A stretch of DNA of 64,000 nt, taken from assembly GCF_965214065.1 (NCBI RefSeq), contig NZ_CBDCAT010000024.1, positions 5,345-69,344 on the forward strand. The letters run 5' to 3'. Below are positions 8,513 through 55,200 of the stretch, in pieces (positions within the stretch are counted from its first letter, which is position 1; each line of letters opens with the position of its first letter). Made by a program: the position numbers and the translations under genes. Below the pieces are notes generated by a model. The model was not told the DNA's origin and searched no databases. It saw only the letters and a program-made list of their open reading frames with translations. This DNA comes from Candidatus Poriferisocius sp. (lineage in GTDB: Bacteria; Actinomycetota; Acidimicrobiia; Acidimicrobiales; Bin134).

Positions 8513-8516
8513 GGGA

Positions 8517-21479: not shown

Positions 21480-21502
21480 TTCGAATCCTGCCGTGGGCGC
21501 TT
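21480..21502 (+). repeat. attR core of GI-1 (copy of tRNA-Arg 3' end)
   Basis: Perfect 23/23 match to 8346-8368. Confidence 0.85.
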
Positions 21503-31556: not shown

Positions 31557-34068
31557 ATGGGTGCCGCAGGGTCCGGGTTGGAGATGTCGTCCGGCCCAAA
31601 GTTGCGGGACGCCTGGGCTGCTCGGGAGCCGTTTGTCATCGAGGTCGCCGAAGGCGGCGGCCTGCCCGACTCCGACTGGTCGAGGAACCTCCGCTGGTGG
31701 GAGCTCGACGCGAAATTCAATATCGGCGGCGAGTCGCTGCGGTTCCTGGCCGAGTCGAACGCCGTCGACGCCCGCAATGCCGCCGATCCCAGGTTCGCCC
31801 CGCTGGTGCAGGCGGTCCACCTCGGCGCCCGCCGGTCGCCTCCCGAAAACCCGGGGGACGCTGTGTCGCCGTCCGGCTGGCCCATTTGGTGCGACGGAGG
31901 CCCGCTCGCGCCGTTCGCAGCCGAAGACCTACAGGCCGGCCAAGACGAGGCTGGCGACGGGCGGGTCGGGGTGGTGCCCGCGGCGAACCTCGCCGTCGGC
32001 AGCCTCGTCCCGATCTTCCCGTCAGATCCCGAGGCCGAGCTGGCCGCAGACCAGATGGCTGCGGTCGCCCATATCGGCGGCGGCGCTCGCATCGTCGCTC
32101 CGGCCGGGTCCGGCAAGACACGGGTCCTGACCGAGAGGGCCCGCCACTTGGTGCGCGGCCTCGGCGTCGACCCGAAGGCGGTGTGTCTGGTGGCCTACAA
32201 CAAGCGGGCACAGGAGGAGATGCAAGACAGGCTCTCCGATGTGGGCGGCTTGCAGGTGCGGACGCTCAACAGCCTGGGGCTGGCCATCTGCAACGGGTGG
32301 GGCCGTTCGCCCGCCCCCGCGGATTCGAGAGGGTCAGAACGGCTGCGGAACGCGAAGTGCGGGATCTGCTGGACGGCCTTGTGCCCCCGGCGCCCCACAG
32401 GGCGATGGTGGACCGAATCGGCCCCTACATCGACGCCCTCGCCGCTACTCGCCTCGGGCTGCGCGACCCGTCCTCGGTTGAAGCTGAATACGACCCCGAT
32501 GCCGACGGGTTCGCCGCGGTCGCCGCGGCATATGCCGACCTCCTCGGCGAGCGGGGCCTCGTCGATTTCGACCATCAGATAATCCGGGCGATAGAGGTAC
32601 TGCTCGCTGACCCGCACGCCCGCCTTGCAGCCCGCCGAGTGTGCTCGGTGATGCTCGTCGACGAGTTCCAAGACCTCACGCCCGCCCATCTGCTGCTGGT
32701 CCGTCTCCTCGCCGGGCCTCGGGCCGACGTGTTCGCCGTCGGCGACGACGACCAGACAATCTACGGGTATTCGGGGGCGTCGCCCCGGTGGCTCATCGAC
32801 TACGACCAATACTTCCCCCGCGCCGCCCGCCACGACCTGCACGTCAACTACCGATGCCCCCCAGAAGTCGTGGACGCGGCCGTGAGCCTCCTGTCGCACA
32901 ACGCCGACCGCCTCGACAAGCGGATAGCGGCCCGCCCCGGACTCGAGCAGCGTCCCCGCAACAGCCCCGACGGCCCCGCCATCCGCGCAAAGACCGCCGA
33001 AGACCCGGCCTTGCAGGTGAGACCCCACATCGAGCGTCTGCTGGGCCGGGGCGCCCAGCCAGGCGACATCGCCGTCCTCAGCCGGGTCAACAGCACCCTG
33101 CTCGCACCCCAGCTCGCCCTGGCTGACATGGGAGTCCCCTCGGACCGGCCCGTGGGCCCCCCATTCCTGTCCCGCAACGGAGTGGCCGCCGCTCTCGCCT
33201 GGGTCGAAGCGGCCACCGCAGCCGACAGGGTCGGACCGGACACCATGGAGATCATCGCCCGCCGCCCCCGCGGAGCATCCCGCCCGATCTGGTCCGAATG
33301 GCGGCCCAGCAGCGCACAGCGGAACAGCTCCGCGAGCTGGCCGAACATCTCGACAACCCCGAAGCGGCCTACAAGATCAACAAGCTGGCCGGCGACATCT
33401 CCGCCCTCCGCCACCTCGCCGCCAGACCCGCCACCACAACCGCCCGGCTGCTCGAAGCGGTCCGCGACGACATCGGCCTGGGCGAAGCGCTCGAAGAACG
33501 GCTCGACGCTTCCCGCCACACAGCGAACCGCCCATCACACGGCGACGACCTTCGCGCCCTCATCTCCGTCGCCGGCCTACACCCCCGGCCCGCCGGGTTC
33601 GCCCACTGGCTCACGCAACATCTCTCAGAACCGGCCGAGAACACACCGGGAGGGGTGCGGCTGGCAACCGTACACAAGGTCAAAGGGCTCGAATGGCCCC
33701 ATGTGATCGTCTACGACGCCACAGAAGGGCTCATGCCCCACATCCTCGCCGAAGACCTCGAAGAAGAAAGGAGAGTGTTCCACGTGGCGATCACCCGCTG
33801 CTCCGAATCGGTCACCGTCATCTGCGGCGAAGACTCCTCCCCTTACCCCGCCGAAACTCGCTCTCCCGCTCGCAAGACCCGCACACCGGGCCCCGCCGGG
33901 CCGCCTGCCCCCGCCGGCTCGCGCCGCACCCCCGGAAAACAGCCAACGACGGCCGCCCCAGTATCAGAACGCGTGCAGCCGACCCACCCGGGCACCAGCT
34001 GGCCTGTCCCAACCGGCCAGAAAAAGCCTCGACAGGACGGGAGCCGCAGCCGTAGGACCAGGCGATGA
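31557..34068 (+). pseudogene. UvrD/Rep-type SF1 helicase with unknown 170-aa N-terminal domain; at least 2 frameshifts
   Basis: Walker A (IVAPAGSGKTRVLTER) lies in frame 0. Motifs LVDEFQDLTP, AVGDDDQTIYGY and VNYRCP lie in frame 2. The C-terminal LATVHKVKGLEWPHVIVY...EERRVFHVAITR lies in frame 1. The shifts are near 32290-32300 and at the C5 run 33265-33269. Confidence 0.8.
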
Positions 34069-34237
34069 CCTCAACCAGGGGAACACCGGGCGGGCGGCTC
34101 CGGGAAGATCCTGTGGTGGTACTGCAATTCGCGAGCTCCGACCTCTGTCGGCTGGGCCGCGGCTGGTGGGAAAGTGCCGGTATTGTCGGGCTGGCTGCCG
34201 ATATCGTGCAGAAGTGCCCGGTTTTTTCGATTAGAAC

Positions 34238-34651
34238 TCAGGAGCTAACGACGTGGAGCCACTTCCCGGTCTCACATGTTGGGCACACCGAACCCAAGAC
34301 GGGGAGCGTCTCGCATCGGAGGCACATGACGCGGAACTCGCCGCCATCTCCCGGGCTGTCCTCAACGAAGTCGAATCGGTGCCGAAGCCGCAAGGCGATC
34401 ATCTCGTACTCGTCCACCATCGCCTGCTGATGGTCCGTGGGACCGTCGGCCCAAAGCTCTCTCAGCCTTCCGGCCAATTCCGTTTTACTGGTCTGCAACT
34501 CGTCTGCCTGCTCGTCGCTCAGCATCCTCACCGCATCCCACAGCACTGTGCGCGTGGCGATCAGCTGGCCGACCAAACCCTCGCCGGTGGACACTCGCCC
34601 ACCCACAGGCACCGGCTCACCATCCATGCGAACCCCTCCTCCGCTCCCCAA
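34238..34651 (-). CDS. Hypothetical protein with C-terminal CxxC...CxxC zinc-ribbon
   Basis: 137-aa ORF. The C-terminus carries CLRC...CPTC. Confidence 0.45.
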   Translation of the reverse strand: MGSGGGVRMDGEPVPVGGRVSTGEGLVGQLIATRTVLWDAVRMLSDEQADELQTSKTELAGRLRELWADGPTDHQQAMVDEYEMIALRLRHRFDFVEDSPGDGGEFRVMCLRCETLPVLGSVCPTCETGKWLHVVSS

Positions 34652-34828
34652 CAGCCAACTTCGGAAGATACCTGCGGCTATCCCAGCAGCAGCGCATCAA
34701 ACAGCATCATGGGCCGCAGCAGACATCCCCCCGCAAACCGGACAACCGCCCGAGCCAAAAGCCGCAACCGTGCGACCCGTGGGCGCTGACCGGCAAACTG
34801 GGGGTCGCTATCTCACAGGGGGCACAAC

Positions 34829-35824
34829 ATGGCTGATAATCCCGACACTGCCAACGACCGGGAGGGGCCTTCAGAGTTGAGGGCTTGGGTTGTGCGCGCT
34901 GGCCGTAAGGGAGAACAGGTTGCACACAACCTCCAACACGGTGTGGCGAGTATCGGTTGGGACGAGTGGGATGCCCCTGACCTCTCATCGTTTGCGGACA
35001 GGAACGCCTATGGGGAGTACATAGAGCGGGACTTCCAGCACGAACCACCCAGCGAAAGAGGAAGCTCCCGCGATCAGGTTTGGCGCTTCTACCACGAAAT
35101 CAGCGTGGGCGACCTCGTGGTCCTGCCGTTGAAGAACCACGGCACCGCCGAGGACTGGATCGCTATCGGCCGAGTGACTAGCGCAGCAGCCTTCGACCCA
35201 TCCCAACCCGTAGGTGGCCATCACCACCGATCTGTCCGGTGGCTGGCATCAAGTGTCCCCAAGTCTGCTGCACCCGAAGACCTGCAAAACTCAATCGTGT
35301 ACTCACGTCAGACCGTCTCCATGCCGAGGTCTAGCGAAGCAACCCGCATAATCCAGGAGTTAGCCGACGAACATTTTGATGCTGCATCAGATGATACCCA
35401 AGAGATTGAACATGACCCAGGCAACCATCAGTTTTCCGCCCTATCCGGCGACGAGGCCGGTGCATTCGACGAGGACGGCAGATTCGTAGAAGGGGCCACC
35501 AAGAAGGTCCCAGTCGTCGTGTACGAGAGGGACCCGGAAGCCCGCCGGATTTGCGTCAAGCATCATGGCGCGAAGTGCCGAGTCTGCGGCATCGACTTCG
35601 GAGAGGAATACGGGGACTTCGCAAACGGCTTCATCCATGTCCACCACAAGACCCCGGTGGCCCGAGCAGCCAAAGACGGCGAGTACAAGGTGGACCCGAA
35701 AGAAGACCTCGTGCCCGTGTGCCCGAACTGCCACGCCATGCTCCACCGCCACGAAGACAAGCCATGCACCGTCGAAACCCTGAGAGAGACACGACATACG
35801 AAGAAACAAACCGACAAAGGGTGA
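34829..35824 (+). CDS. HNH endonuclease with uncharacterised N-terminal domain
   Basis: C-terminal CRVCG...HVHHKTPV...VPVCPNCHAMLH (HNH/His-Me finger with Zn cysteines). The roughly 130-aa N-terminal domain (WVVRAGRKGEQ...GDLVVLPL...IGRV) belongs to no family I can name. Confidence 0.8.
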   Translation: MADNPDTANDREGPSELRAWVVRAGRKGEQVAHNLQHGVASIGWDEWDAPDLSSFADRNAYGEYIERDFQHEPPSERGSSRDQVWRFYHEISVGDLVVLPLKNHGTAEDWIAIGRVTSAAAFDPSQPVGGHHHRSVRWLASSVPKSAAPEDLQNSIVYSRQTVSMPRSSEATRIIQELADEHFDAASDDTQEIEHDPGNHQFSALSGDEAGAFDEDGRFVEGATKKVPVVVYERDPEARRICVKHHGAKCRVCGIDFGEEYGDFANGFIHVHHKTPVARAAKDGEYKVDPKEDLVPVCPNCHAMLHRHEDKPCTVETLRETRHTKKQTDKG

Positions 35825-36048
35825 CAACCACCAAAACAGCCTGCCGGTGATGGTTCCGAACGGGTAAAGGAGCCGTTGTCCTCACGGTCTCTCCAAGAAG
35901 GAGCAGACTTGCCCAGTCGCATTCTCCCAATCCGCGTCAAGCCCCCCGCCGAAGCAGGTCCGCCGTGTGATGGCCGCCGACTTGACCTAGGTTTCTGGCG
36001 CCTGTCCCCACCAGGGTTGGCTTCTGTGGGGGCTGCTGGCCGCTGTGG

Positions 36049-36438
36049 TCAGACCTGATACCAGAAGTCGCCGTTGTTTTTCGGCCACCAGGGCGGCTGC
36101 ACCAGGTGGAAGTCCGTCGGCCATGAGAAATGTCTTGAGTAGCCGCCGTAGTGTTTTGCGCTGATCGTTTCATTCGAGCCTACGAGCATCCTGCATTTGG
36201 TGACGGCCGAGCCCGAAAACGTCAGCGCCGGAATGGTGCACGGTTCATAGCTGCTGGCCAGCGAATAGGGCGCTGCCCCCGGCGTGTTGGCCCACACAGG
36301 GGGGCTGTCCGGCATGGCACAGTTCCCGACGGGCATATCGAAGTCGAGCGCCCACAGGCCGCTGTAGGGAACGAAGACGACGGCGTTGGCGATGGTGATG
36401 CAGTCCACCGGGGGAAGGCTGATGATCTTCGCCCGCAA
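36049..36438 (-). CDS. Hypothetical protein (N-terminus unresolved)
   Basis: The frame stays open upstream to 36660 and looks coding (GTISFYGGQSFPENDHTLTG), but has no ATG/GTG/TTG before TTG 36438. Possible truncation or unusual start. Confidence 0.35.
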   Translation of the reverse strand: MRAKIISLPPVDCITIANAVVFVPYSGLWALDFDMPVGNCAMPDSPPVWANTPGAAPYSLASSYEPCTIPALTFSGSAVTKCRMLVGSNETISAKHYGGYSRHFSWPTDFHLVQPPWWPKNNGDFWYQV

Positions 36439-36892
36439 GTCGGCGATGGCCGCTGCGCCGGTGAGAGTGTGGTCGTTCTCGGGGAAGGACTGGCCTCCAT
36501 AGAACGAGATTGTGCCTACCCTGGTGACAGGGGCCTCCCGGTTCGGGGGCAGTGGCTCCGGGCAGTCAGGGTCGTTCCATGTGTCCGGCGGCGGCAGGAA
36601 AGCGAAACAAGGCCGCCACTCCGGGAGACAGCACCTCCGGCAATAGGCGCAGACGCTTGCTCAGGTGTGGCGGAGTGCCACCACCCAAGAAGCCAAGTCC
36701 GACCCGGCCGGCCGACACTCGCCCACCCCTTGAACACGCTTCTCGCCAAGCCACAGCCGTCCTGACTGGCCCTCCGCGGCATCGCCTCAAACTGTCACCG
36801 CGCGCCAATACACTCGCCGCGGAACTGCTAGCCGCCTATAGCCGGATCACTGGCAGGCGAGAGGTGAAATCCGACGACGGGCAAGGAGTCTG

Positions 36893-38290
36893 ATGTCCAA
36901 GCAGCAAGAGCAGGAGAAGGTGGATGAGGGAGTCAGGATAGCTGTTCCCGAGTTTGTCGCAGACAAAGACAACCCCTTTGCCGGTGACTTGTTGGGCCGC
37001 GGGCCGCGGGTGAAGCTGCTGTGCGATTTCGCCAGATCGGTTTCCGACCATGTAGTCATCGCCGTCGATGGGGAGTGGGGAACTGGCAAGACAGCGTTCC
37101 TGAGGATGTGCAGGGCATACCTAGAGCAGCAGGAAGTCCGGGTTGCCGAGTTCAACGCCTGGACCGAGAGCTACACCACGGACCCCGTGTTCAATCTTGC
37201 TTCGGCGCTGGCCGAAGTGGTGGAAGGGGACCGACTTACCAAGATCATTGAGGCAGCGAAGGTCATTGGTGTGGCTGCTGGAAAGAGCCTGCCGTTCAAG
37301 GTCGGGGACGTTGTATCTGAGGCGGCAGAGATGATTGCCCAGAACCAAGCATTCCCAAACGGTCTACCTGAGTACCGCGATTGTGTTCGTGGATTCAAAG
37401 AGGCCCTGGAACAGGAAGCAGCCAGAGCAGACGGCCCGCTGTTGGTGCTGGTCGACGAGATGGATCGCTGTTTGCCCCAGCAGGTAGTCGAATACCTGGG
37501 GGCCGTCCACAACTTGCTGGCAGTGCCGGGGGTGGTTGTAGTGCTGGCGATCAACCTGGAGCAGACGGCAAGGGGGCTGGAAGCTGTCTATGGAAGTGCA
37601 TACGGTTCCAAGCGGTACTTGCAGCGGTTCTTCTCTCTGAGGATGACCCTTGATGGGGCTATTGAAACCGATGGACTCCTGCCGCTGATCCGCCTGTTGC
37701 GAGGCCACTTCGGGGATGATGTGGAATCGGCAGGGAGCGCCGACTTCATCGACTACTTATTGAGCATCCCCGCAATGGCCTCCCGTGGCTCCCTCAGGGA
37801 CCTTCAACGTGTGGGCCAGGCCCTTCAGCTGACGGCAGCGGTTGGTTTCGGTCAGAAAACGGGATTGAACACCAGCGACCAAGGGAACCTCACCCAGCTC
37901 TTGCTTGTGGCCTTGGCACTGCTGGTCTTGAGCCAGCTAGACGAAAAGCTCTACCGGGAGTTCATGGAAGGCAAGAAGAGTGCCTCCGAGGTCATGCTGG
38001 GCTTGCGTAACCGGCTCCCCGCCGACGACAGGGATCTGCCTATTGTGGCCCGCGCGGTAGCAGCCTATTTGGACGTTCTCGGAGATGCGCTCGGCACACC
38101 CGCAATCACCGAAGACCAGTACCAGGAGGTTGCAGGCCGCTATGGCCTTCAAAGAGGCGCGGGGGGCTACGAAGACTATTGCAGGTTCGTGGACAGTGTC
38201 CGGGGGCACCTCCGGGCCGGGATGTCCCGCCAGGTGTTGGCAGCAGTCGAGATGGCCAACGATTGGCCGAACATTCATTTGCGAGCCTGA
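36893..38290 (+). CDS. KAP-family P-loop NTPase
   Basis: 465 aa. Walker A is IAVDGEWGTGKTAFLR, Walker B is LLVLVDEMDRC. AAGGAG RBS. Confidence 0.85.
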   Translation: MSKQQEQEKVDEGVRIAVPEFVADKDNPFAGDLLGRGPRVKLLCDFARSVSDHVVIAVDGEWGTGKTAFLRMCRAYLEQQEVRVAEFNAWTESYTTDPVFNLASALAEVVEGDRLTKIIEAAKVIGVAAGKSLPFKVGDVVSEAAEMIAQNQAFPNGLPEYRDCVRGFKEALEQEAARADGPLLVLVDEMDRCLPQQVVEYLGAVHNLLAVPGVVVVLAINLEQTARGLEAVYGSAYGSKRYLQRFFSLRMTLDGAIETDGLLPLIRLLRGHFGDDVESAGSADFIDYLLSIPAMASRGSLRDLQRVGQALQLTAAVGFGQKTGLNTSDQGNLTQLLLVALALLVLSQLDEKLYREFMEGKKSASEVMLGLRNRLPADDRDLPIVARAVAAYLDVLGDALGTPAITEDQYQEVAGRYGLQRGAGGYEDYCRFVDSVRGHLRAGMSRQVLAAVEMANDWPNIHLRA

Positions 38291-38515
38291 TTCGAGATTG
38301 CAAATGGCTTGTTGATCTGAACGTGACTGCTGCCGATACCCAGGCCAATGACCGCCCCGAGATCCATGCCTCATGGGCTGCTGCCCGACCGGCTTTGGAT
38401 TTCTTCATAGCGGATCAAAGAAGGTCCGAGTTGTCGAACCCGCTCACTAAAATTGTGATGTTTGCCAGCTAGCCGCCTGCCCTCAGAACACCGGCAGGCA
38501 AGAGAGGAGACCGCG

Positions 38516-38743
38516 ATGAGCAAGAAACCCCCGGCACACACAGTCCTGCACGGCGACCAGTGGGCCAACCGGCGCGAAGGGTCGGAACGGGTCAGCAGAA
38601 AATTTCCCACCAAGAAGCAAGCCCAACAGGCGGGGCGCAACACCGCCAGGCGGGAAAACACCGAACACCTCATCCACAAAATAGACGGCACAATCGGCGA
38701 GCGGAACAGCTACGGCAACGACCCGCACCCGCCGAAGGGCTAA
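38516..38743 (+). CDS. DUF2188-like small protein
   Basis: Start ATG 38516 (GAGGAG RBS). HTVLHGDQWANRREGSERVSRKFPTKKQAQQAGRNTARRENTEHLIHKIDGTI fits the DUF2188 pattern. Confidence 0.65.
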   Translation: MSKKPPAHTVLHGDQWANRREGSERVSRKFPTKKQAQQAGRNTARRENTEHLIHKIDGTIGERNSYGNDPHPPKG

Positions 38744-38745
38744 CG

Positions 38746-39078
38746 ATGTCGGACCCACTAGCAAGCGCAGCAGCTAGCGCCATAGGTCCGAAGCTCTTTG
38801 GGAGGAGGGCGGCGAAGCGCCTTTCAGGTGCGGTGATGCAAATTGTTATGCGGATCGGGCTGTCGGGTGCTGACCGGGACCGGGCTCTACGCCAGCTCTC
38901 CCGTGAGATGTCAAGAGAAATCCGCTCCCTGAACCACACCCTCGCCGCCATAGCCATGTGCGATGAGTCCCCGGCAGCACGCCGCTATCTGTCGCAGATT
39001 GTCGAAGAAGGCATATCCGCGCACGACGAGAGGACATACAAGGAGCGGATGTGGGAACGGCTCGAAGCCATCCCATGA
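38746..39078 (+). CDS. Hypothetical protein
   Basis: ATG lies 2 nt after the previous stop. 110 aa with non-biased composition. Confidence 0.5.
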   Translation: MSDPLASAAASAIGPKLFGRRAAKRLSGAVMQIVMRIGLSGADRDRALRQLSREMSREIRSLNHTLAAIAMCDESPAARRYLSQIVEEGISAHDERTYKERMWERLEAIP

Positions 39079-39088
39079 GTAGGGTCCG

Positions 39089-39577
39089 ATGAGCTTCGTT
39101 GTTGCTGCCACCGCGGCTGCTGTCGGTTCTCTGCTTTCGGTTGTCCTTGTCGGCATCGGCAAGTACATGCGGGAAAACCGGATACGGCTCCGTTTCTGGG
39201 TTTCTGGCTTCTTCTCAGAACAGACCCCAGTCCGGTCAGACGGGCTTGCCTCTTCTCCAGATACGTCAGTGGGCACGACGGACTGGAGAGTGGTGTGCCC
39301 TCCCCTTTCAAGGATGTTGAAGGTGTGCAGAGCGGCCTTCAAGAAGGACTGTGAGACCACCATCGAAGCCATCGACCTGATGTACGGAAGGTTGGACAGC
39401 AGCAAGCAGGAGATGCTCCTAAGAATTTGTGCAACAGGTGTTGATCCGGGACCTCAAGGTAGGCGACATCCTTGGTCTAGGGGGATCCAACAACGTCGTC
39501 CAAGCCATCGAACCAGAAGGAAACGACCACTACGTCGTCACCTTCAACGAGCACAATGTCCAGCACTGGGCTGGTAG
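39089..39577 (+). CDS. Hypothetical membrane-anchored protein (3' end uncertain)
   Basis: N-terminal TM is FVVAATAAAVGSLLSVVLVGIG. The last roughly 50 codons are R-rich and overlap ORF 39429..39614, so the true end may be earlier. Confidence 0.35.
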   Translation: MSFVVAATAAAVGSLLSVVLVGIGKYMRENRIRLRFWVSGFFSEQTPVRSDGLASSPDTSVGTTDWRVVCPPLSRMLKVCRAAFKKDCETTIEAIDLMYGRLDSSKQEMLLRICATGVDPGPQGRRHPWSRGIQQRRPSHRTRRKRPLRRHLQRAQCPALGW

Positions 39578-39614
39578 TGGGAGCAAGGTGGCAGTCAAGA
39601 GGCATCTGGATTGA
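39429..39614 (+). CDS. Hypothetical small protein
   Basis: 61-aa GTG-start ORF with balanced composition (LKVGDILGLGGSNNVVQAIEPEGNDHYVVTF). Confidence 0.35.
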   Translation: MQQVLIRDLKVGDILGLGGSNNVVQAIEPEGNDHYVVTFNEHNVQHWAGSGSKVAVKRHLD

Positions 39615-39677
39615 ACACTTGTCCTCCTGCTCCGCCGCCCCTGTGGCCAAATCAGCGCCCCAAGTAGCCTGCCTCTC

Positions 39678-40817
39678 ATGCGAGCCATCCTGAGTTTCCG
39701 CTCCTTTACCTTGCTCGCTGGTGTGATCGCGTTGATCGCTGTGCTGCTTGGGCCAGTTGTGTCGGCGCAGACCCAAAGCGATTTTGAAGTGAGGGATCAG
39801 CTGATTGCGGACCAGGAGAACCTGTTGAACACCTACCGCTGCCTGTTCGGCGTGGAAACCGATGTGGTTCCAAGCGGGTGCCCGACCCCTGATGTGATCG
39901 AGCCTGGTCCTGCCCCTGCGAACCCCACACAGAACGACATCGACGTGCGGGACCGACTGATCCAGAACCAAGAAGCCCTGCTGAACGTCTACCGATGCCA
40001 GTTCGACGTTGACACCCAGCTCGTGCCCGGAGGTTGCGCCGCAGACGACGGTGAAAGCGACCAATCGACAGGGGAGGGCAGCACTAGCACCACGGTGATC
40101 GACGTGCTCAACAGCCTCACCGTCGAAGCCGAGTACACAGGGTCGGGATATGTGCGAGCCGACTTCGACCATGATCGGGGCTACCTCTGCAACGACTCTG
40201 GCATCGATCCCTACACCGGCATCGGCTTCGACCCGTCTACCTGTGACGTAGACCACATCGTAGCTGCGCAAGAGGCACACGAGTCCGGGGCATGGAAATG
40301 GGAAGTCGCCCGCCGCCAGGCGTTCGGCAACGACGCTTTGAACCTCGTGCCTAGCCGTGATTGCGTCAACCGATCCAAAGGAGCGCGGGACATAGCCGAA
40401 TGGTCAGGTCGGATCGGCAGCGGGGTGTGCAAAGGGGTGGAGACAACCGCCCAGGGGCTGTGCTATCTGGCCAGGAAGACAGTCGAGGTCAAAGCCGCCT
40501 ACTCCCTGTCAGTTGACCAGGCCGAGAAGAACGCGCTCACCCAGGTGCTAGACGGCTGTCCCGCCGACGGGGCTACGCAGCCTTCTGGCCCAGTCGACAC
40601 TCAGCCCACGCCCGGGCCGACTCCCTCGACCCAGGCCGACACAACAGGCGACTCCGACTGCCACCCCGCCTACAGCCCATGCCTTCCCGACCTTGCTGGT
40701 GACGCTCTGAACTGCGGTGATCTCACCTCAGACCAGAAACCAGTGCAGGTGCTCGTCGCCGGAGTGGACCCGTACCGGCTGGACCGGGACGGGGACGGGT
40801 GGGGCTGTACCTCCTAG
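39678..40817 (+). CDS. Secreted DUF1524/HNH-like nuclease with Excalibur domain and duplicated N-terminal Cys-pair module
   Basis: Signal peptide is LLAGVIALIAVLLGPVVSAQ. Carries two copies of the NQExLLNxYRC...VPxGC module, then CDVDHIVAAQEA...NLVPSRDCVNRSKGARD and DPYRLDRDGDGWGC. Confidence 0.8.
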   Translation: MRAILSFRSFTLLAGVIALIAVLLGPVVSAQTQSDFEVRDQLIADQENLLNTYRCLFGVETDVVPSGCPTPDVIEPGPAPANPTQNDIDVRDRLIQNQEALLNVYRCQFDVDTQLVPGGCAADDGESDQSTGEGSTSTTVIDVLNSLTVEAEYTGSGYVRADFDHDRGYLCNDSGIDPYTGIGFDPSTCDVDHIVAAQEAHESGAWKWEVARRQAFGNDALNLVPSRDCVNRSKGARDIAEWSGRIGSGVCKGVETTAQGLCYLARKTVEVKAAYSLSVDQAEKNALTQVLDGCPADGATQPSGPVDTQPTPGPTPSTQADTTGDSDCHPAYSPCLPDLAGDALNCGDLTSDQKPVQVLVAGVDPYRLDRDGDGWGCTS

Positions 40818-40874
40818 CCTTCCAGTCGGGTGGTTATCGCTGGCTGATAGTGGCCTGTGCTGGTCTGTCCCAGT

Positions 40875-43800
40875 TCACAGAAGGGTGGTGCTGTTAGGGA
40901 CCGTTGGTTTCTTTGCTGCTTTCGCGGTGACGGGAATGATGCCGTTGTCTTCAAGTTCTGCTGTGGAGATCAGCGGGCCAGAGAGCACGCGGTCGAGAAG
41001 GTTTGCCTGCTTGGTCTCCAGGTCGGCGAGCATTGTCAGCACGTTGATGAGTTGGAGCAGTTCTGTTGTGAATTCCGCCGTCCAAGTTCTCTGTGTGATC
41101 TTGTCGAGATCGGAGGAAGGATTTCCCTCAGGTTCCTTCTTTCGGGAGCGGAACCAGTTCCTTAGGGCGTTCACGCCCGACACTTCGTAGGTCCAGGCTG
41201 ATTCTTCGACGGGGCCTATGGTGCCCTCCCCGACAATGAGTTCCTTGCTTAAGGGGTTGTAGTCGATCTCGTTCGGCATTTCTTGTTCAGAGGTTGGTAT
41301 CGACTTGAGCACCTTGGGTCGACGCGGAGGCTCCAGATGTGGTGGCCTGCGGGGCCTGCTGCCGCTGTCATCGACGAATCGCTCGCCATATGTGTGGAGC
41401 CAGATGACTTCGGCTCCGATGTTCGCTGCCTCTCGATACAGCGCTCTGTCTCCGGTGAGGGGAACTCTTAGGCCAGGGGTTTGGAGGCCGACAAGTAGCC
41501 GCTCTGTATATGCGGGGGCACCGGCAATTGCAGCGACATAGGCAAACAGTTCCCGTGGTGAGGTGGTCTCGTTATGGACCGTGGCAATGAAGTCGAGGAG
41601 TCCGGGTGCAATGTTCGGGGAGGATGCACTGGGATCGCGCCAAAGGGGGAACACCCTGCCGCCGCGACCGTGATAGTGGTCTAGGTCTGGGACCAGCCCG
41701 GAGAACGTGATCGCCGGGCCGGACTTGGGAACCGTGCGGTGAATGGCGGTCAGATACACCTGGTTGTCGCCGCGCACATACCAGAGGGACGGGTTGGGCT
41801 GGTTGATTACCCGCTTGTCGGCGATCAGGTGTTGGCGGTCGAATGACCGAAACGCGATTGGCTCGGTCGGGCAATTAGCATCTTTCTCGTGGCCGAGTGA
41901 GGTCTTCGGGGGGTCGTATCCCCATAGGTTGTCCTCCAATCTCGTGTCCAGAGTCCTGTCTCGGGGGTGGGGGTCGAGAAGTTCGGATTTCTCCTCGCGG
42001 TCCGTTTCCCCGATGAGTTTTGACCAGCGGGCTTTGAGAACTTTGCTGTTGGGTCCGATCACCCATCTTCGTCCGGGCATGGTTCCTGAGCCGGACCAGG
42101 GGAAGAGGTCGTCCAGCGCTGGGTAGGATGCCCAATCTGGCGACCCTTCGGGCGTGAGTGGTGCCTTCCACTCGGTTGGCGCGAGGAACCATTGGGAGTT
42201 GTCGTCCGGGTCTAGTGATGACAGCTCTAGGAACTTTTCTGTGCGGTGGCCGGGATTGAGCTGTCTGAAGTGGACGGGGGCGGGGGTGTCCGAGTCTGTT
42301 GTCCCGTCTTTGAGGGCTATGACGACGCAGATCGGCTGCTGGACTCCTGGGAATACCCTGGTTGGAATATTTGGCTGGTGGCCTTCGGGGGTCGTGTCTA
42401 TGACCCATAGTTCGTCGGCTGTGCGCCTCAGGTAGTCGCGCATTTTGGCGAAGCCCGGCCCGCCCAAAAACCCCGAAGCGGTGACAAAGGAGATGATGCC
42501 GTTGGGGCTGTCCTCGTGGCGGTCAAACACCTTCCAAGATGCCCAGCGCCAGAAGTAGACGTAGGGGTTGTACAGGTGTTTGACATGTGTAGAGAGTTTC
42601 CACTCTGCGGGTGGCAGGAAGTCCTTGAGCGGCGGTTCGCTCGCCGACTTGTCGCCGGATTCGACCCATCCTCCCTTCCCCTTCGATCTCTCCTTGTAGG
42701 GGGGATTGCCGATGACCACGACGACAGGTTCGTCTGCCTTCACATTGTTGGCGTTGCGGCGCGATTGGGCGATGGGTTCGTACAGCGAGCCCAGCCGAGT
42801 CACCTCCACGAACGGGTCGTCGAGGGTGTTCGCGACGTAGAGCCGCAAGTCCTCCTCGGGTACATCGGCTCCCCGCCTGCGGTACTCCTCTGAAAGCCTG
42901 AGTTCCGCGACGCTGTACGGACCGGTCTGCAACTCGAAGCCGATGAGTCTCTTGGCTGCTGCTTCGAGCTGCGGCCCCACAGCCCCAGGTCCTTCTGAAT
43001 CTTCTACGGTTTGTGCTATCCGGTCGATGACCCGGAACAGGAAAGTGCCCGTTCCGCAGGCTGGATCGACAACGGTGACGCCTGGCGATGCGAGCCCTTG
43101 TTGAATCTTGAGGCGTGAGCGGAGAAGTCCGTCGGTGAGCTTCACCATTGAGTCGACCACCTCTACCGGGGTGTAGTAGCTCCCGGACTGCTTGCGTAGC
43201 TCGTTGTCGTACTCGGCCAGGAAGTCCTCGTAGAACAACAGCCATTTGTCGGGGTCGCCGTCGGACAGCCGGTCCCAGTCAACGACCGACAGGACCCGCA
43301 CGAGTGCCCAGACCGAGGTTGCGAGGCTGTCGAGGACTGTCTGGTCGGTGAGGAGCGACAGAGCCGTGCCGATCAGACCATGCCTGGTGTTGAGGTGCTT
43401 CGCTATCGAGTTGAAGTTTGGATTCTCCCCGTTCAGTGTGGCGGCGTTCAGGTCAATCCCTTCGACTCGCGCGAGGAGCAGAGCGAAAGTGATTGTTTGG
43501 GCGTATTGGTCTGCAAACTGCTTGTCTGTCGCCTCGGGATAGAGCAGGTCACGCCAGTCTGCCTGCAAGCTCTTCAATCCCGAGGAGCCGCCAATCAGCT
43601 CCAGCACCTCCAGCCTCAGGAGTCGGCACAGACGCGCCGTCGTCTCAGCCAGTTGCCGCACAGAAACAGGTGCAACGGGTTCCCACCCGAGGAAGTTGGA
43701 CAGCAGGAGTGCTAGCTCGGAGTCATCAGCGCTCAGGTCCGGGCCTGACTGGTCTACGTCACCCTGCAACCTCACGAGGCCGCCGACTCGATCGCCTTCC

Positions 43801-44177
43801 CGGTACAGGCCCCACTCGTTTCCGTCGGTGTACAAGATGTTTGGAAGCGCCGATAGGCGTTTCCACTGCTCCTTGTCATGCGCTTCTCGGAACCGCCTCG
43901 TGTCGGCCCCCTTGCCCGGAGCCTTCACCTCGATATGGCCCACAAGCAGTTGATCCACAAGCACGGCAAAGTCAGGCTTGACTCTCAAATCGCTAAGGGC
44001 GCTCTCACCCGCCAGCACGGGCACACCAATCCCAAGGGAGACCGCTATCCCGGTGACCAGGACTTCGACAGGAGCGCGAAGCTGCTCCTCCGGCTCTCCC
44101 AGCCCACTCTCTGACTTCTCTGTGACTGCGCGTCCGAATTCTGAGACGAGAGGCTGAAGTTCTGAAAGAGAGATCAA
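40875..44177 (-). CDS. Type IIG/IIL single-chain restriction-modification enzyme (PD-(D/E)xK nuclease + N6-adenine methyltransferase + specificity domain)
   Basis: 1100 aa. N-terminal KPDFAV...GHIEVKAPG nuclease motif, SAM motif I VVDPACGTGTFL, motif IV VIGNPPYKE. The long C-terminal region resembles MmeI/type-ISP-like specificity domains. GC is visibly lower than in the neighbours. Confidence 0.85.
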   Translation of the reverse strand: MISLSELQPLVSEFGRAVTEKSESGLGEPEEQLRAPVEVLVTGIAVSLGIGVPVLAGESALSDLRVKPDFAVLVDQLLVGHIEVKAPGKGADTRRFREAHDKEQWKRLSALPNILYTDGNEWGLYREGDRVGGLVRLQGDVDQSGPDLSADDSELALLLSNFLGWEPVAPVSVRQLAETTARLCRLLRLEVLELIGGSSGLKSLQADWRDLLYPEATDKQFADQYAQTITFALLLARVEGIDLNAATLNGENPNFNSIAKHLNTRHGLIGTALSLLTDQTVLDSLATSVWALVRVLSVVDWDRLSDGDPDKWLLFYEDFLAEYDNELRKQSGSYYTPVEVVDSMVKLTDGLLRSRLKIQQGLASPGVTVVDPACGTGTFLFRVIDRIAQTVEDSEGPGAVGPQLEAAAKRLIGFELQTGPYSVAELRLSEEYRRRGADVPEEDLRLYVANTLDDPFVEVTRLGSLYEPIAQSRRNANNVKADEPVVVVIGNPPYKERSKGKGGWVESGDKSASEPPLKDFLPPAEWKLSTHVKHLYNPYVYFWRWASWKVFDRHEDSPNGIISFVTASGFLGGPGFAKMRDYLRRTADELWVIDTTPEGHQPNIPTRVFPGVQQPICVVIALKDGTTDSDTPAPVHFRQLNPGHRTEKFLELSSLDPDDNSQWFLAPTEWKAPLTPEGSPDWASYPALDDLFPWSGSGTMPGRRWVIGPNSKVLKARWSKLIGETDREEKSELLDPHPRDRTLDTRLEDNLWGYDPPKTSLGHEKDANCPTEPIAFRSFDRQHLIADKRVINQPNPSLWYVRGDNQVYLTAIHRTVPKSGPAITFSGLVPDLDHYHGRGGRVFPLWRDPSASSPNIAPGLLDFIATVHNETTSPRELFAYVAAIAGAPAYTERLLVGLQTPGLRVPLTGDRALYREAANIGAEVIWLHTYGERFVDDSGSRPRRPPHLEPPRRPKVLKSIPTSEQEMPNEIDYNPLSKELIVGEGTIGPVEESAWTYEVSGVNALRNWFRSRKKEPEGNPSSDLDKITQRTWTAEFTTELLQLINVLTMLADLETKQANLLDRVLSGPLISTAELEDNGIIPVTAKAAKKPTVPNSTTLL

Positions 44178-44264
44178 TTCATTGGCCTTTCGGATCAGGG
44201 AACTTCACAGCCGACCACATCCAAGATCGCTGCTGGCGGTGTAAAGAGACTACTGGTGTCCTAT

Positions 44265-44289
44265 GGGACGTTCCTATAGACGTCAAGTG
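44265..44289 (+). repeat. Left direct repeat of internal att-flanked remnant
   Basis: GGGACGTTCCTATAGACGTCAAGTG matches 44737-44761 at 22/25. Confidence 0.6.
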
Positions 44290-44329
44290 AGCATCCCCCC
44301 TTTGGCCGGTCGCCTCGATTGGGAGGTAA

Positions 44330-44482
44330 TTATGTCATTGATGGAAAAGGAGAGGCCGCCGGGCAGGGCCAGACCCAATGTCCAGCCAACAGGAGGAAGC
44401 CCAGCCCACAGCGCGCCTCAAGCCAACGGCGGGCCGACAAGACGATTTGGCAATCACGAATATCGGTTTCCATGGCCACCAT
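44330..44482 (-). pseudogene. AlpA-like gene remnant
   Basis: MVAMETDIRDCQIVLSARRWLEARCGLG matches the N-terminus of 18980..19330. The HTH continuation (SSCWLDIGSG-P) is only in another frame and is truncated. Confidence 0.5.
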
Positions 44483-44736
44483 CCTGCAACGCCATACCGG
44501 TCGCGACCCATCCGCCGACCGGTCGCAAGCCGCCCGATCCCCACTACCAGAAGCACAGCCGCGTCAGCGGGCTCCAGTTCTTCACCGACTGCGGCAGATT
44601 TCGAGGCTCCCTCGGCTTGCCGCCGCCGGCGTCCGGATTACCCCGATAAAATGGGGGATGGATTGGGGGATAGAAGAAACTTTTTGCCGACTCTGGTGGC
44701 TCTACCAGGGATTTTGTCAACTGTTCAAGTCCCAGG

Positions 44737-44761
44737 GGGACGTTCCTGTATATGTCAAGTG
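44737..44761 (+). repeat. Right direct repeat of internal att-flanked remnant
   Basis: GGGACGTTCCTGTATATGTCAAGTG. It is preceded by a tRNA-3'-end-like TTCAAGTCCCAGGGGGACG at the same offset from CTCTACCAGGG as the GI-1 attR core. Confidence 0.6.
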
Positions 44762-44797
44762 CGGGTTGTGAGGGTGGGATGGGATGGTGTTCTGCGG

Positions 44798-45271
44798 ATG
44801 AGAAAATTGCTTGAGAGTGGGTTCTGGGCGGGGAGAACATTACGGAGTCACCCGCCACAGCAATTCGCCGATCTGACAGGCCGTGAGGCTGAAGCGGTCA
44901 TCGAGGGGCTCACTGTCCACCAGAGCCGGCTCCTAGACAACGACCCCTACGCGCATGGGATCAGCGTGGACCATTTGCTGGGCCGCATCGGCGAGCAGCC
45001 ACCACCAGAGCCAGTCCTGTGGGTGTGGCACGAGATCGACCTGCCGCTGCTGGACTGGAAGCTTGTGAGGGGACGGGAGAACCTTGGAGACGCGTACCGG
45101 CTTCTCGCCGACATCGCTTGCAGCATCGGAGCAGTGCCCGGCATGGTGAACATCGGAGATGGCTATTGCTGGGCAAGCAAGTTCGGGTTGCGGGTTACCT
45201 TCGTAGTTGCCAGCCCGGTCCCGTCGGGCGGTCTGCTGCTTCTATCTGTCGAGACGGTCGGAAGCACCTGA
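44798..45271 (+). CDS. Hypothetical protein
   Basis: 157-aa ORF from ATG 44798 with balanced composition. Confidence 0.5.
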   Translation: MRKLLESGFWAGRTLRSHPPQQFADLTGREAEAVIEGLTVHQSRLLDNDPYAHGISVDHLLGRIGEQPPPEPVLWVWHEIDLPLLDWKLVRGRENLGDAYRLLADIACSIGAVPGMVNIGDGYCWASKFGLRVTFVVASPVPSGGLLLLSVETVGST

Positions 45272-45298
45272 CATCTGCCATTGGGTCTGACAGCCCTG

Positions 45299-46366
45299 TT
45301 AGTCGTGTTCGTAGAGGCGGTCGGTGGCGGCGAGCCAGGCGGGGTTTTGGGGCCATTGGTCGGCGGCGGCGTTGAGGATTTCTGCGGCGGCGAGGCGTAG
45401 TTCTTTTCGGGGGGTGGGGTCGGCGATGAGCTGGTCGAGCCATTCGTCGGTGACGGTGGGCAGGGGTGGTCCGATGGTGGCGGCGATGGCTTCGGCGGTT
45501 TGTTCGTCGTTTTGGTCTACGGCGTCGACGAGCAGGGCGATGTCGGTTTTGACTTGTGGGGCGAGGGCCCAGTCGGCGGGGCTCTCGCGGATGACCCAGC
45601 CGTCTTTTTCGGCTCGTCTCATGAGGCTGCGGACGTTCTCTGGGGTGGAGCGGAGGATGCCGGCTACCTCGTCGGTTTTGGCCCGGTTGGCGCCGGCGGC
45701 GACGAGCACGGCGAGCAGCGACTCGCGGGCTTTGCGCATGGGCTTGTTGGAGCAGTACAGGTTGAACGCTTTTCCGCAGCGGGCTTTGATACCGTCGGCT
45801 CGGGCGAGCAGCTCTTCGCGGGTTGCAGGGGGTTGGGCGGGGGTTTCGGCGCGGTGTTCGGGCTGTGGGGATCCGCCGGTGTGGTCTGCGGCGGGCCGGG
45901 TCGGCGCGGGGGGCTCTGAAGGGTCGGGGTCGGGGTCGGGTTGGGCGTCGGGGTCGGGTTGGAGGGGCGTGAAGTAGGGGGGTGGGATGGGCTGGTTGCG
46001 GGGGCGGGGCAGGTCCCACACGGGGGAGGACAGGTGCAGTCCGCCGCTGTGGGGCCTCCAGGGCCTTCGCCGGACGATCCAGGACAGGGCAGGTGCGGCG
46101 ATCAGCGCCCAGATGGCGGCGGCGGTGGTGGCCGCGCATCTGGCGGCTTGTTCGCCGAGGTCGTTTTGGGCGATCTGGTGGTAGGCGGCGGTCCATGTTT
46201 CGGGGTCGGTTTCGAGCAGCCCGGTTTTGGCGGTCCAGGCGGTGTAGGCGCAGAATCCGGCCAGCGAGACGACTGAGCGGGCCCATTTGCGTATTTCGCG
46301 GCGGCCGGTGGGGGTGGCTTTGCGCCGGGTGTAGTAGACGGCTCTGGTGGCCTCGATGCCGGTCAT
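45299..46366 (-). CDS. Membrane protein with P-rich linker and C-terminal wHTH-like domain (last gene of transfer operon)
   Basis: 355 aa. Two TM segments, a PDPD/P-rich linker, and a C-terminal region (DEVAGILRSTPENVRSLMRRAEKDGWV) resembling a winged HTH. Confidence 0.6.
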   Translation of the reverse strand: MTGIEATRAVYYTRRKATPTGRREIRKWARSVVSLAGFCAYTAWTAKTGLLETDPETWTAAYHQIAQNDLGEQAARCAATTAAAIWALIAAPALSWIVRRRPWRPHSGGLHLSSPVWDLPRPRNQPIPPPYFTPLQPDPDAQPDPDPDPSEPPAPTRPAADHTGGSPQPEHRAETPAQPPATREELLARADGIKARCGKAFNLYCSNKPMRKARESLLAVLVAAGANRAKTDEVAGILRSTPENVRSLMRRAEKDGWVIRESPADWALAPQVKTDIALLVDAVDQNDEQTAEAIAATIGPPLPTVTDEWLDQLIADPTPRKELRLAAAEILNAAADQWPQNPAWLAATDRLYEHD

Positions 46367-52208: not shown

Positions 52209-55200
52209 TCATAGCCCGATGCCCGCACCGCCCGTGGAGACCCCGCGGCCGCGGCTGGTGGCCGACAGGCCCTCGGCGGCGGCGGAGCCGTCTGCGCTGA
52301 GGCCGTTGTCGCCGGGGCTGTCTGCGCTGAGGCCGTTGTCGCCGGGGCTGTCTGCGCTGAGGCCGTTGTCGCTGGGGCTGTCTGCGCTGAGGCCGTTGTC
52401 GCCGAGTTGGGGCGGGGGTGCGGGCCGGTGGGCGAACTCCCCGAGGTTGACGAGGGTGCTGGCCGACTTGCGCTTCTCGGGCTGGTCGAGGAGGGCTTTG
52501 TAGAAGCCCTCGTCCTTGTCGCGCTCGATGGGGTTGGCGTAGAGGTCGGCCTCGACTCTTTTGAGCTCGGTCTTCTTGTCCCTCAGCTCTTGGGCGTGGG
52601 GCCAGTCCTGGTGGATTTGCTTCTCGGCTATGGGGATGGACTGGGTGATGCGGTCGATGTCGGCGGCTGTGCCGGCGGCTGTGTCGGGGACCTTGTTGAC
52701 GGTGTTGGCGACGCGGGTGGCGGGCCGCAGCCGGCCCGCCGCGATGTCGCGGCCCTCTATGGTGAAGCCGATGCCTGCCTCTGGCGGGCCGATGCGCACC
52801 TCGACGGCCCGCATGTCGTCGTCGACGACGTGGCGGGCGGCCACTTCGAGGCCGGCGACCTCGGCGACGCGGGTGTCGGCGTCCTCCCGTCGGTGGTAGA
52901 CGGCTTCGAGCTCGCAGCGGAGCTGCTCGTCGGGCGAGTCGCCGCTGCCGGCGGGCAGGCTGCGGCCCGGGGTGACCCGGACCGACCCGGCTGTCTGCGC
53001 GGGAACGGCGAGGGGTTTGAGGGCTTCGAGCTTGGCTCGCTTCGCCGGCAGGGACTGGTGCCAGAACTTGAGCCGGGTGGAGGTGCGCCACCGCTCGATG
53101 TCGTGGGCCTCTTGGAGCAGCTCGAGCTCGCGTATGTCGTGGGTCAGCTCGGCGCGCCGGACCACCCTGGGGTCGCCGGAGGACACGGCCATGGCCGCGG
53201 CGAAGTCGTCGGTGCCCATCGCCTCGCCGCTGTCCTCGTATTCCATGGTGCGCCCGTGGTGGCGCCCCGACAGGAACTGGGCTATGAACTGCGCCTTGGA
53301 GTCCAGCGTCGAGTACATGAAGGTGTCGAAGCTGCTCTCTTGGCAGTACCTGATGACCTGAACCTCGTCGAACTGGTTGCCCGACCGCACGATGCGCCCC
53401 TCGCGCTGCTCCATGCTCGCCGGCGTCCACGCCGGGTCGAGGTGGTGCAAAGCGGCGAGCCGGGTCTGGATGTTCACGCCGGTGCCCGCCTTGGCGGTCG
53501 AGGCGACCAGCACGGACACGTCGCCCTGGCGGCACCGGCGGAACAGGGCGTCTTTGGCGGCGGGGCTGTCGTGGTCGTGGACGAACTCGATCTCGGCGCG
53601 CGGCACCCCGCGGGCCTCCAGCTCGGCGCCCAGCGCGTCGTACACGGTGAACGCCTTGTGCTCGCCGGGCGTGCCGAGATCGCAGAACACGATCTGGCAC
53701 GCGCCCGGCGCCCGGTGCTCGGTGCCGGTGGCGGGGTCCAGGAACCGCCGCCGCGCGTGGGCGTCTCTGATTCGGGCGACGCGCTCGGCGCAGGCTTGGA
53801 CCTTGGAGGGGCTGGGCTGGTCGACGCCGACGAGGCGCAGGTCGAGGGTGGCTTTGCGCCCGTCGTTGCAGATGCTGAGCATGTTGTCCCACTGGGGGTT
53901 CTCGCCCAGGTTCTCGGAGCGCCGCTGGAGCCACTCCTGGTACGCCACCATCCGCGGAGAGCCGGGCACCAGCACCGTCTCGGGTGCGCTGCCGGCGATC
54001 GCGGGCCGGTCGAGGTCCAGGTCGCCGGCGGTCTTGATGTCGCAGCACAGCGACAGGAGCCCGGCCAGCTCGGGTAGGTTCTTGTAGGCCCGCAGCCGGC
54101 TCTTGACCTTCCAGTCTGCGCCCCGCGGCGACGGCTCGGCGCGCAGGACGGACTCCGCGAACGCGGCGGCCCAGGAGTCGAACGACCACAGCCGGCGCTG
54201 GCGCAGCAGCCCGGGCTGCAAAAAGCGCTGCATCACGTATATCTCCCAGGGCGCGTTGGTGACCGGCGTGCCCGTCGCGAACGTCAGCGCGCCCCGGTTG
54301 ACGCCGAGCTCGCGGTTGCGGGCCCGCAGCGCGAACGCCTTGACCTCCATGGCCTGCGCCCAGATCGACGGGCTGGACTGCGCTAAGTCGCGGTTCTGGC
54401 TGACCAGCGGCAAATTCTTGAAGCAGTGCGCCTCGTCGATCATGACGTAGTCCACGCCGAGCTCCTCGAATGCGACGCCTTGTTGGTGCCACAGCGCCAT
54501 CTGGCGGTGGGCGAGGTCCCTGTTCTCCTGGCGCCGGTTCTCCAGCACCTGCTCGATGACCTTCTGGCGGGCCTTGGCCGCGCCAGCGGCGGCTTCGCCG
54601 TCGCGCTCGCCACGCAACTGGGCCTCGAGGTCTTCGATGCGCTGCGCGTTGAACGCGGCGACGGCGCTGGGCGATGCGGGCAACCGGTTGAAGAACGACA
54701 GGGGGATGACGATGGCGTCCCAGTCGCCGTTCATGGCCCTGGCGATGAACTCCTTGCGCCGGCGCTGGCCGGTCGGGGTGGCCCCGCCGTCGGGCATGAG
54801 GATCGACGCGTTCGGGTACAGGGTCTGCATATCCCGGCAGAACTGGGCGACGAGGTGGTTGGGGACGGCGATCAGCGGCTTGGCGCAGATCCCCAGCCGG
54901 CGCATCTCCATCGCCGCGGTGGCCATGACCGCGGTCTTGCCCGCCCCCACGGTGTGGGCCAACAAGACGTCGCCCTCGTGCAGAATGCGGCACACCGCGG
55001 AGGCCTGGTGGTCGCGGAGGGTGAACGAGTCGATCAGCCCGGCGGGGTGGCCGAGCCACTCCGGCGGGTACTGGGGGGCTATGAAGCAGTTGTAGGTGTC
55101 GTTGTACAATGCGGCGAGGCGGTCGCAGCGCTCGGGGTCGGTGTCGAACGCCCACCGGCGCAGCTCGGCGTTCCACTTGTCGATTTTGGCGCGGGCCGCG

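Follow-up and report, generated by a model that had tools for sequence, protein, structure and literature searches.

Lambda- and P4-type tyrosine-integrase islands at tRNA genes carry, on the P arm of attR, arm-type sites for Int together with sites for Xis or AlpA. Cis-mobilisable elements (CIMEs), as set out in PMC5704250 (citing Pavlovic 2004 and Bellanger 2011), keep both attL and attR. Tandem accretion is described for streptococcal elements of the ICESt1/ICESt3 type, and a tandem at tRNA-Lys with a chimeric internal att site is described as well (PMC5704250). Here we describe a segment of about 0.5 kb, enclosed by imperfect 25-bp direct repeats, in an integrative and conjugative element (ICE) of Candidatus Poriferisocius sp. 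(Acidimicrobiia), a sponge symbiont. Like the streptococcal CIMEs, the segment is bracketed by direct repeats and lies beside or within a related element whose integrase is of the same family; unlike a CIME, its only recognisable arm is of the attR type and its repeats are imperfect. It differs from these tandems in that it occupies the internal cargo slot of an ICE at tRNA-Arg(TCT), rather than forming a tandem at tRNA-Lys, and its host is a member of the Acidimicrobiia rather than a Firmicute as for ICESt1/ICESt3. With the attR of lambda- and P4-type islands it shares the setting of PF13356-containing integrases, paired arm-type repeats at a fixed distance from a core formed by a tRNA 3' end, and a terminal alpA gene whose promoter is covered by repeats. 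In contrast to those systems, the repeats TGGGGGAT and CCGGTCGC are putative binding sites, and the partner site and both proteins are missing at this locus. We interpret the segment as the fossil attR-side terminus (about 450 bp) of an island with a P4-type integrase, belonging to the family of the resident island GI-1 and of the related locus L015 and having a tRNA-Lys(CTT)-type core. We assign a probability of about 0.75 to this explanation as a whole, within which the homology and its limits, the architecture, the lack of coding capacity and the flank variability are observed and we infer the order of formation, the inertness of the segment and the binding sites.

The window, that is, the whole 64,000-nucleotide stretch analysed, consists of high-GC, actinobacterial DNA. 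Two tRNA genes were confirmed in it, tRNA-Arg(CCT) at 8291-8366 and tRNA-Arg(TCT) at 27218-27293, and each is followed by a P4-type tyrosine integrase with an arm-DNA-binding domain (Arm-DNA-bind_3, PF13356), which is present in all integrases of the GI-1 family. GI-1, at tRNA-Arg(CCT) (8346-21501), is complete, with an attL core at 8346-8367 and an attR copy at 21480-21501. For the tRNA-Arg(TCT) core, no second (attR) copy was found within the window; the ICE at this gene must therefore extend past the right window edge. The ICE integrase gene (27417-28610) lies just after tRNA-Arg(TCT), and a variable cargo insert of 16.7 kb (28611-45298) separates its 3' end from that of a convergent 355-aa gene on the minus strand (45299-46366); this second 3' end bounds the cargo slot. 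The cargo comprises GmrSD-like, UvrD-like, HNH, KAP-NTPase and Type ISP-like methylase/endonuclease genes in addition to the segment and a gene termed orf157, and its GC content is 0.58-0.63, compared with 0.66-0.77 in the conjugation module. That module, from about 45.3 kb onward, encodes a T2SSE-type ATPase, a 2033-aa SNF2-like helicase, a coupling protein and a lytic transglycosylase. The left neighbour of the segment is the Type ISP-like gene (40875-44177, minus strand), with its start codon at 44177.

Several minor features of this setting were recorded. Two GmrSD_C-like genes in the cargo, at 28792-29534 and 40083-40819, are inverted paralogs that are 75-77% identical, with about 11 kb of cargo between them, and could drive inversion or exchange of that cargo. 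The 3' end of the SNF2-like helicase gene contains tandem repeats of 30 nt (52250-52429). ARAGORN placed a tRNA-Ser(CGA) within the reading frame of the same helicase (57361-57440, minus strand); this prediction is probably a false positive, since the Rfam tRNA model scored below threshold.

The two repeats that enclose the segment are GGGACGTTCCTATAGACGTCAAGTG at 44265-44289 (plus strand), 88 bp away from the Type ISP-like start codon, and GGGACGTTCCTGTATATGTCAAGTG at 44737-44761 (plus strand), the first 3-4 nt of which are shared with the end of the core described below. Their positions and their identity of 22/25, both proposed earlier, were verified. They are the only two matches in the window at up to 3 mismatches, with none in shuffled sequence, and the best direct pair of 25-mers in 300 dinucleotide shuffles of 44000-45000 did not exceed 20/25, against the 22/25 observed. 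The three mismatches sit in the middle of the repeat, and an identity of 88% looks like the mark of two related sites rather than of a fresh duplication. The pair marks the exact limits, on both sides, of a stretch that is homologous to island termini: the left copy coincides with the point at which homology to the terminus of GI-1 starts, and the right copy, beyond its overlap with the core, is specific to this flank and is missing after the core in L012 and L015.

The 25-mer had no occurrence among 16 related loci, and an empty-site allele, in which the Type ISP-like gene, a single 25-mer and orf157 would be adjacent, was not found among the loci compared. Because no such allele was found, insertion at the 25-mer is a proposal, and so, as no other locus has the 25-mer either, is the order of events given below. 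The 25-mer may stem from the target, from a P' start or from sequence internal to the element. Upstream of the left copy there is no tRNA or T-loop sequence. At a tandem accretion junction (internal attI), the integrase-proximal arm and integrase gene of a second element would come after the core; here, the right copy is followed by GGTGGGATGGGATGG and an ATG; similarity of this stretch to the 5' regions of integrase genes was not significant, and orf157 is no integrase. If a tRNA exists whose 3' end and trailer read TTCAAGTCCCAGGGGGACGTTCCTGTATATG, the 25-mer would be part of a genuine tRNA attB rather than of a secondary site. A separate candidate, in which the 25-mer is a homolog of the trailer and P' start that follow tRNA-Lys in L003 (GGGACTTCCGCACAGTTGTCGGAAGT), was rejected, as the similarity was not significant.

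Between the repeats, the leftmost recognisable part is a non-coding stretch at 44294-44374 (plus strand) with one CCGGTCGC at 44306. It is 65% identical over 80 bp to GI-1 21027-21104 (E 0.003), its local score of 22.5 was equalled in 0/1000 dinucleotide shuffles, and its offset is colinear with that of the remaining segment. Next to it are the first 24 codons of an AlpA/Xis-type gene (alpA', 44402-44473, minus strand), with the peptide METDIRDCQIVLSARRWLEARCGL; homology to intact alpA ends at about 44401. The alpA promoter and leader (44474-44533, minus strand) carry CCGGTCGC repeats at 44497 and 44519. Taken together, these two parts (44402-44533, minus strand) match GI-1 18931-19060, the alpA promoter and first 24 codons there, at 76.5% identity (AlpA-like peptides METDIRDCQIVLSARRWLEARCGL and MEADAREIHEILSTRRQVEARGGL, respectively). 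CCGGTCGC thus occurs three times in the segment, and six copies lie around alpA and the right arm of GI-1, at 18920-18965 and 21191-21257. The AlpA-like remnant with its repeats, which had been noticed earlier, is borne out by this comparison.

Further right, a candidate pair of arm-type integrase sites, TGGGGGATggatTGGGGGAT (44652-44671, plus strand), consists of TGGGGGAT at 44652 and again at 44664, at a spacing of 12 nt and 72 nt upstream of the core. The paired motif TGKGGGR-N5-TGKGGGR occurs 4 times in the window against 0.03 expected, every time at an att arm, and across the 16 related loci it is confined to positions adjacent to integrase genes or to the right ends of islands. A P-arm motif, CTCTACCAGGG (44700-44710, plus strand), begins 48 nt after the first arm site and is kept in GI-1, L012, L014 and L015. 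The core itself, GTTCAAGTCCCAGGGGG (44723-44739, plus strand), is identical to tRNA-Lys(CTT) from the T-loop through to the acceptor 3' end, and homology to intact islands stops here; its TTCAAGT starts at 44724, 13 nt past CTCTACCAGGG. This order of arm site, CTCTACCAGGG at +48 and TTCAAGT 13 nt on repeats the right-end architecture of GI-1 (21408, 21456 and 21480), as the earlier note had stated. An 8-pair hairpin at 44691-44720, of which CTCTACCAGGG is the 3' half, is followed by ATTTTGT and resembles a terminator; as the hairpin is not evident in GI-1, it is the motif CTCTACCAGGG that is conserved and not the hairpin.

The open reading frames of the segment have codon-position GC values of 0.60/0.60/0.66, compared with 0.64/0.45/0.71 in neighbouring genes, and so show no gene-like pattern; none has a Pfam match, and no Rfam match and no match to a promoter consensus were found in the segment. 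The description of the segment as gene-poor is therefore accurate. No integrase, intact alpA or integrase-proximal (attL-type) arm is left in it.

From one 25-mer to the other, the sequence is colinear throughout with the last 475 bp or so of GI-1, its right-terminal region (21027-21502, plus strand). In GI-1 this region contains the homologous stretch, an inverted alpA' fragment of 3 codons, CCGGTCGC repeats, arm sites, CTCTACCAGGG and the tRNA-Arg(CCT) attR core at 21480-21501. The sequence of the arm sites and the spacings are identical in the two termini. They differ in the core, which is of the Lys type in the segment and of the Arg type in GI-1, and in the alpA' fragment, of 24 codons and 3 codons, respectively. 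Since the colinearity with the GI-1 terminus includes a short alpA', the truncation of alpA was probably already present in the terminus of the parental element and did not arise in the deletion that made the scar. The left part of the segment (ATCCCCCC...GATTGGGAGG...ATGTCATTG, then GGCCGCCGGGCAGGGCCAGAC) was also considered as an attL arm with a remnant of the integrase 5' end, for which the similarity was weak (6/300 shuffles at best); this reading of 44290-44400 was dropped, because the match to the GI-1 right-terminal region is significant and the match to the integrase is marginal.

GI-1 has undergone changes of its own. The 5' region of its alpA is present in two inverted copies (18946-18997 and 21208-21259) about 2.2 kb apart, and the block past alpA (19188-20558) is inverted relative to L016 (19244-17925), which together suggest that an inversion between the alpA 5' repeats shifted the functional alpA off the right arm. 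In addition, its 1108-aa open reading frame (14147-17473, minus strand) contains several families of tandem repeats of 48-63 nt, especially at 15500-16850, with a local GC dip to 0.525, and probably encodes a repetitive surface protein.

Intact relatives of the segment were obtained by a search for AlpA homologs with contig retrieval (L012/L013 and L014) and by a metagenome scan (L015). The right 340 bp of the segment are far closer to L015 than to GI-1: 44402-44739 is 89% identical to L015 120-466, where alpA is intact for the 61 codons visible before the contig ends. L012/L013 have a complete alpA of 73 aa, the first 71 nt of which, with 252 nt upstream, are 83.4% identical to window positions 44403-44740. 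In L012/L013 and L015 the same promoter thus precedes an intact alpA, and in L014 alpA is the outermost gene, adjoining the core genes. From the inside outward, the right end of this family consists of an inward-reading alpA, its promoter with CCGGTCGC, two arm-type sites, CTCTACCAGGG and the core, and the geometry of arm sites, +48 motif and +72 core is the same in GI-1, L012, L014, L015 and L016. The segment has each of these parts: paired TG(G/T)GGGR sites 12 nt apart with a CTCTACCAGGG-like motif at +48 and a core at 72 nt, an alpA at the terminus that reads inward from a promoter with CCGGTCGC repeats and has lost its gene body, and a core that is the 3' end of a real target tRNA, from which the last 3-4 nt are missing. 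Homology to the window ends at ...TTCAAGTCCCAGGGGG in both L015 and L012 and, in every comparison, at CCCAGGGGG(A/G), or in fuller form ...TTCAAGTC(C/T)CAGGGGG(A/G); past the core, each relative contig has its own flank. A contig scan for CTCTACCAGGG..TTCAAGTCCCAG returned a single chance match, within a Verrucomicrobiae gene. Viral contigs scanned for the core, the 25-mer and relatives of the Type ISP-like gene gave nothing, and there was no plasmid or phage match.

The tRNA that matches the core, for which the earlier note had suggested a search, is tRNA-Lys(CTT). GTTCAAGTCCCAGGGGG agrees at 17/17 positions with the 3' part of this gene in L003 and L011, where the gene ends in ...GGGTTCAAGTCCCAGGGGGGGTA, and the tRNA-Lys of L002 has a one-base variant of the core. 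At the segment, the final GGTA of the tRNA gives way to ACGT, with which the right 25-mer continues beyond its overlap with the core. L002, L003 and L011 are sister ICEs that are integrated at tRNA-Lys(CTT), with conjugation modules that are 94.6% (L003) and 83.6% (L002) identical to that of the window. In all three, the integrase gene has tRNA-Lys on one side and the 355-aa gene homolog on the other, and the integrase-proximal arm of L003 carries TTGGGGGAT pairs. As the core is the tRNA-Lys(CTT) 3' end used by these sister ICEs, the segment represents the attR side of a Lys-type family member. The identities of 89% and 83% to intact right ends, together with this core, are our reasons for regarding it as a real attR-side fossil, and they support the earlier view of a right arm from a GI-1-family element with a different target, reduced to its terminus (89% to L015 and 83% to L012/L013).

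The position of the segment was compared by BLAST in 10 related ICE loci (L001-L004 and L006-L011). In 10/10 of them, homology of the conjugation module breaks where the 355-aa gene has its 3' end, at 45292-45311. In L006 and L007, the integrase (88% identical to window 27294-28594) is at tRNA-Arg and directly adjoins the homolog of the 355-aa gene. L002, L003 and L011 have the same compact layout of integrase and 355-aa gene at tRNA-Lys, and L001, L004 and L008-L010 carry different cargo in the same slot. Because the integrase and the conjugation module are adjacent in L006/L007, we consider them one backbone, and the variable insert is therefore 28.6-45.3 kb. The proposed division into a defence part (27.2-44.3 kb) and a conjugation part from 44.8 kb did not survive this comparison, in that L006/L007 unite integrase and conjugation module and the homology of the module actually breaks at 45292-45311. 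In three cargo-bearing variants, no arm-site pair lies within reach.

To the right of the segment, a block at 44772-45298 (plus strand) contains orf157 (44798-45271, plus strand), a real gene of unassigned function (codon-position GC 0.66/0.46/0.72; homologs at 58-86% identity). In L016, a non-conjugative island of 14 kb that sits at tRNA-Glu and has an integrase of the same family, this block continues into the 3' part of the 355-aa gene, so that window 44772-45877 corresponds to L016 9975-11080 at 94% identity, starting 11 bp past the right 25-mer. The Type ISP-like gene on the left has a counterpart in none of the fetched loci. The segment thus lies at a mosaic junction, given the L016-shared block that starts 11 bp to its right and the Type ISP-like gene, with no counterpart, on its left. 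The earlier idea of a boundary between separate histories holds to this extent, although the junction is not the one that had been proposed. A reading of orf157 as a decayed integrase was rejected: it has no Pfam match and no significant DNA similarity to integrase genes, and it belongs to a homolog family of its own.

The surrounding junctions are themselves variable. Pieces of the 355-aa gene from its 3' end (45292-45601) are duplicated around an isochorismatase cassette in L001 (11793-11872) and L004 (11426-11478) and occur twice in L016 (8286-8583 and 10469-11080), which gives this gene end the look of a hot spot at which recombination exchanges cargo. The conjugation backbone (94-95% identical) is paired with integrases of tRNA-Arg or tRNA-Lys specificity, and the non-conjugative L016 uses tRNA-Glu. 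The window integrase at tRNA-Arg(TCT) is 88% identical to that of L006 (12550-11249) at tRNA-Arg(CCT), and the 3' ends of the two tRNAs differ by one base.

In intact relatives, the region retained here is the P arm of attR. By analogy, the N-terminal arm-binding domain of the integrase would bind the TGGGGGAT pair, 72 bp from the core, AlpA would act as excisionase by binding the CCGGTCGC repeats that overlap its own promoter, and strand exchange would occur within the tRNA T-loop/acceptor sequence. We propose that a relative of the Lys type entered the cargo slot by recombination at a related or secondary att-like site, which would have produced the 25-bp repeat, and that later deletion spared nothing of it but the terminal non-coding region. 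Integrase-mediated recombination at such a site, followed by loss, would be the simplest account of the repeat. Against insertion counts the left 25-mer, which is accompanied by no tRNA part, arm-site pair or integrase remnant. Alternatively, the scar may have been imported ready-made with the neighbouring cargo. Lacking an integrase, an intact alpA and an integrase-proximal arm, and with 25-mers that differ at three central positions, the segment is predicted to be inert; against this counts the GI-1 integrase of the same genome, which uses identical arm-type sites.

The edge of the cargo on which the segment lies admits a different interpretation, in which the entire defence cargo has its true right end here. 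A Lys-type island with 28.6-44.2 kb as its content would have entered the slot of the ICE by integration and lost its integrase end later, and the left 25-mer would be internal island sequence and no att site. The segment does lie where the Type ISP/defence block ends on the right, beyond 44772 the DNA has other relatives (L016), the GC content of the cargo is uniformly lower with the same codon-GC profile throughout, and several family members carry defence-type cargo. However, the left 25-mer falls exactly where homology to the GI-1 terminus begins, the repeat is locally significant, and there is no integrase remnant, tRNA-Lys core or arm-site pair within 28.6-44.2 kb. Moreover, 34215-34779 and 39664-40822 recur in L001, differently ordered and oriented, and so point to a mosaic instead of one island. 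We therefore consider one large Lys-type island unlikely. A quite different proposal, that the segment is a conserved regulatory or transfer region (an oriT, or the promoter region of orf157 or of the Type ISP-like gene) that merely resembles an att arm, could draw on its place between divergent genes (start codons 44177 and 44798) and on its repeats and one hairpin. Yet the same 500 bp, which the earlier note would have expected to find conserved in homologous elements in that case, are absent from the equivalent position in 10/10 related ICE loci, L016 shares orf157 and 26 bp upstream of it without the segment, the closest relatives are island termini beside alpA, and no Rfam or promoter-consensus match was found. 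The locus comparisons have largely refuted this proposal already, and we regard it as scarcely credible.

The label CIME-like, given to the segment earlier, is apt by half. Integration and conjugation genes have been lost and an attR, consisting of P arm and core, is kept, but there is no attL: the left end has only the 25-mer, with no T-loop, core or arm-site pair, and the adjoining DNA matches the GI-1 right-terminal region. The label goes no further because no integrase, intact alpA or attL-type arm survives. In a still-functional, true CIME, the 25-mers would serve as attL and attR for a resident integrase, e.g., that of GI-1, which would excise the 472-bp unit or mobilise its flanks. The bracketing direct repeats, the well-kept P arm (89% to an intact element) and the identical site pair TGGGGGATGGATTGGGGGA on the integrase-proximal arm of GI-1 would all agree with this. 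Weighing on the other side are a left copy without an arm-type site pair or any other attL architecture, an alpA cut after codon 24, and the finding of a second copy of the unit or of the 25-mer in 0/16 related loci; the three mid-repeat mismatches and a core unlike that of GI-1 (TTCGAATCCTGCCGTGGGCGCT) likewise argue against excision by a related integrase. Such activity is, in our judgement, very improbable. A related thought is that the segment is a usable landing site, and that the ICE family loads its defence slot by integrase capture of smaller members at internal att-like sites; resident integrases, e.g., that of GI-1, with the same arm-site sequence, would then still bind the preserved P arm and core. 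We hold this to be improbable as well.

As the fossil attR-side terminus of a Lys-type island, the segment is a commonplace scar, of the kind left when mobile elements accrete and decay, and a case of known biology in an unstudied host. It leaves the current view of ICE accretion and decay unchallenged, and its value lies mainly in annotation. The composite element is now delimited, with a backbone in two halves, the integrase at 27.3-28.6 kb and a conjugation module that starts at 45.3 kb. The intervening 16.7 kb are an exchangeable defence-cargo slot, and the segment shows that at least one further island, with specificity for tRNA-Lys, went through it. The comparisons also document a previously uncharacterised family of ICEs and islands in Candidatus Poriferisocius, and since its att arms follow a clear, recognisable grammar, they are useful for locating island borders in uncultured genomes.

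A second pair of neighbouring termini was seen in L015 (461-715), in which the bare right terminus of a tRNA-Glu-type island comes about 70 bp after the right end of the Lys type. This second terminus has TGTGGGAC pairs at 620 and 632 and the core TTCGAATCCCGTTGGGGGT at 692, and it is nearly identical to the right end of L016 (19290-19440). Because a Lys-type end lies beside a tRNA-Glu-type end in L015, nested or abutting termini recur in the GI-1/L015 family, as accretion and decay would predict.
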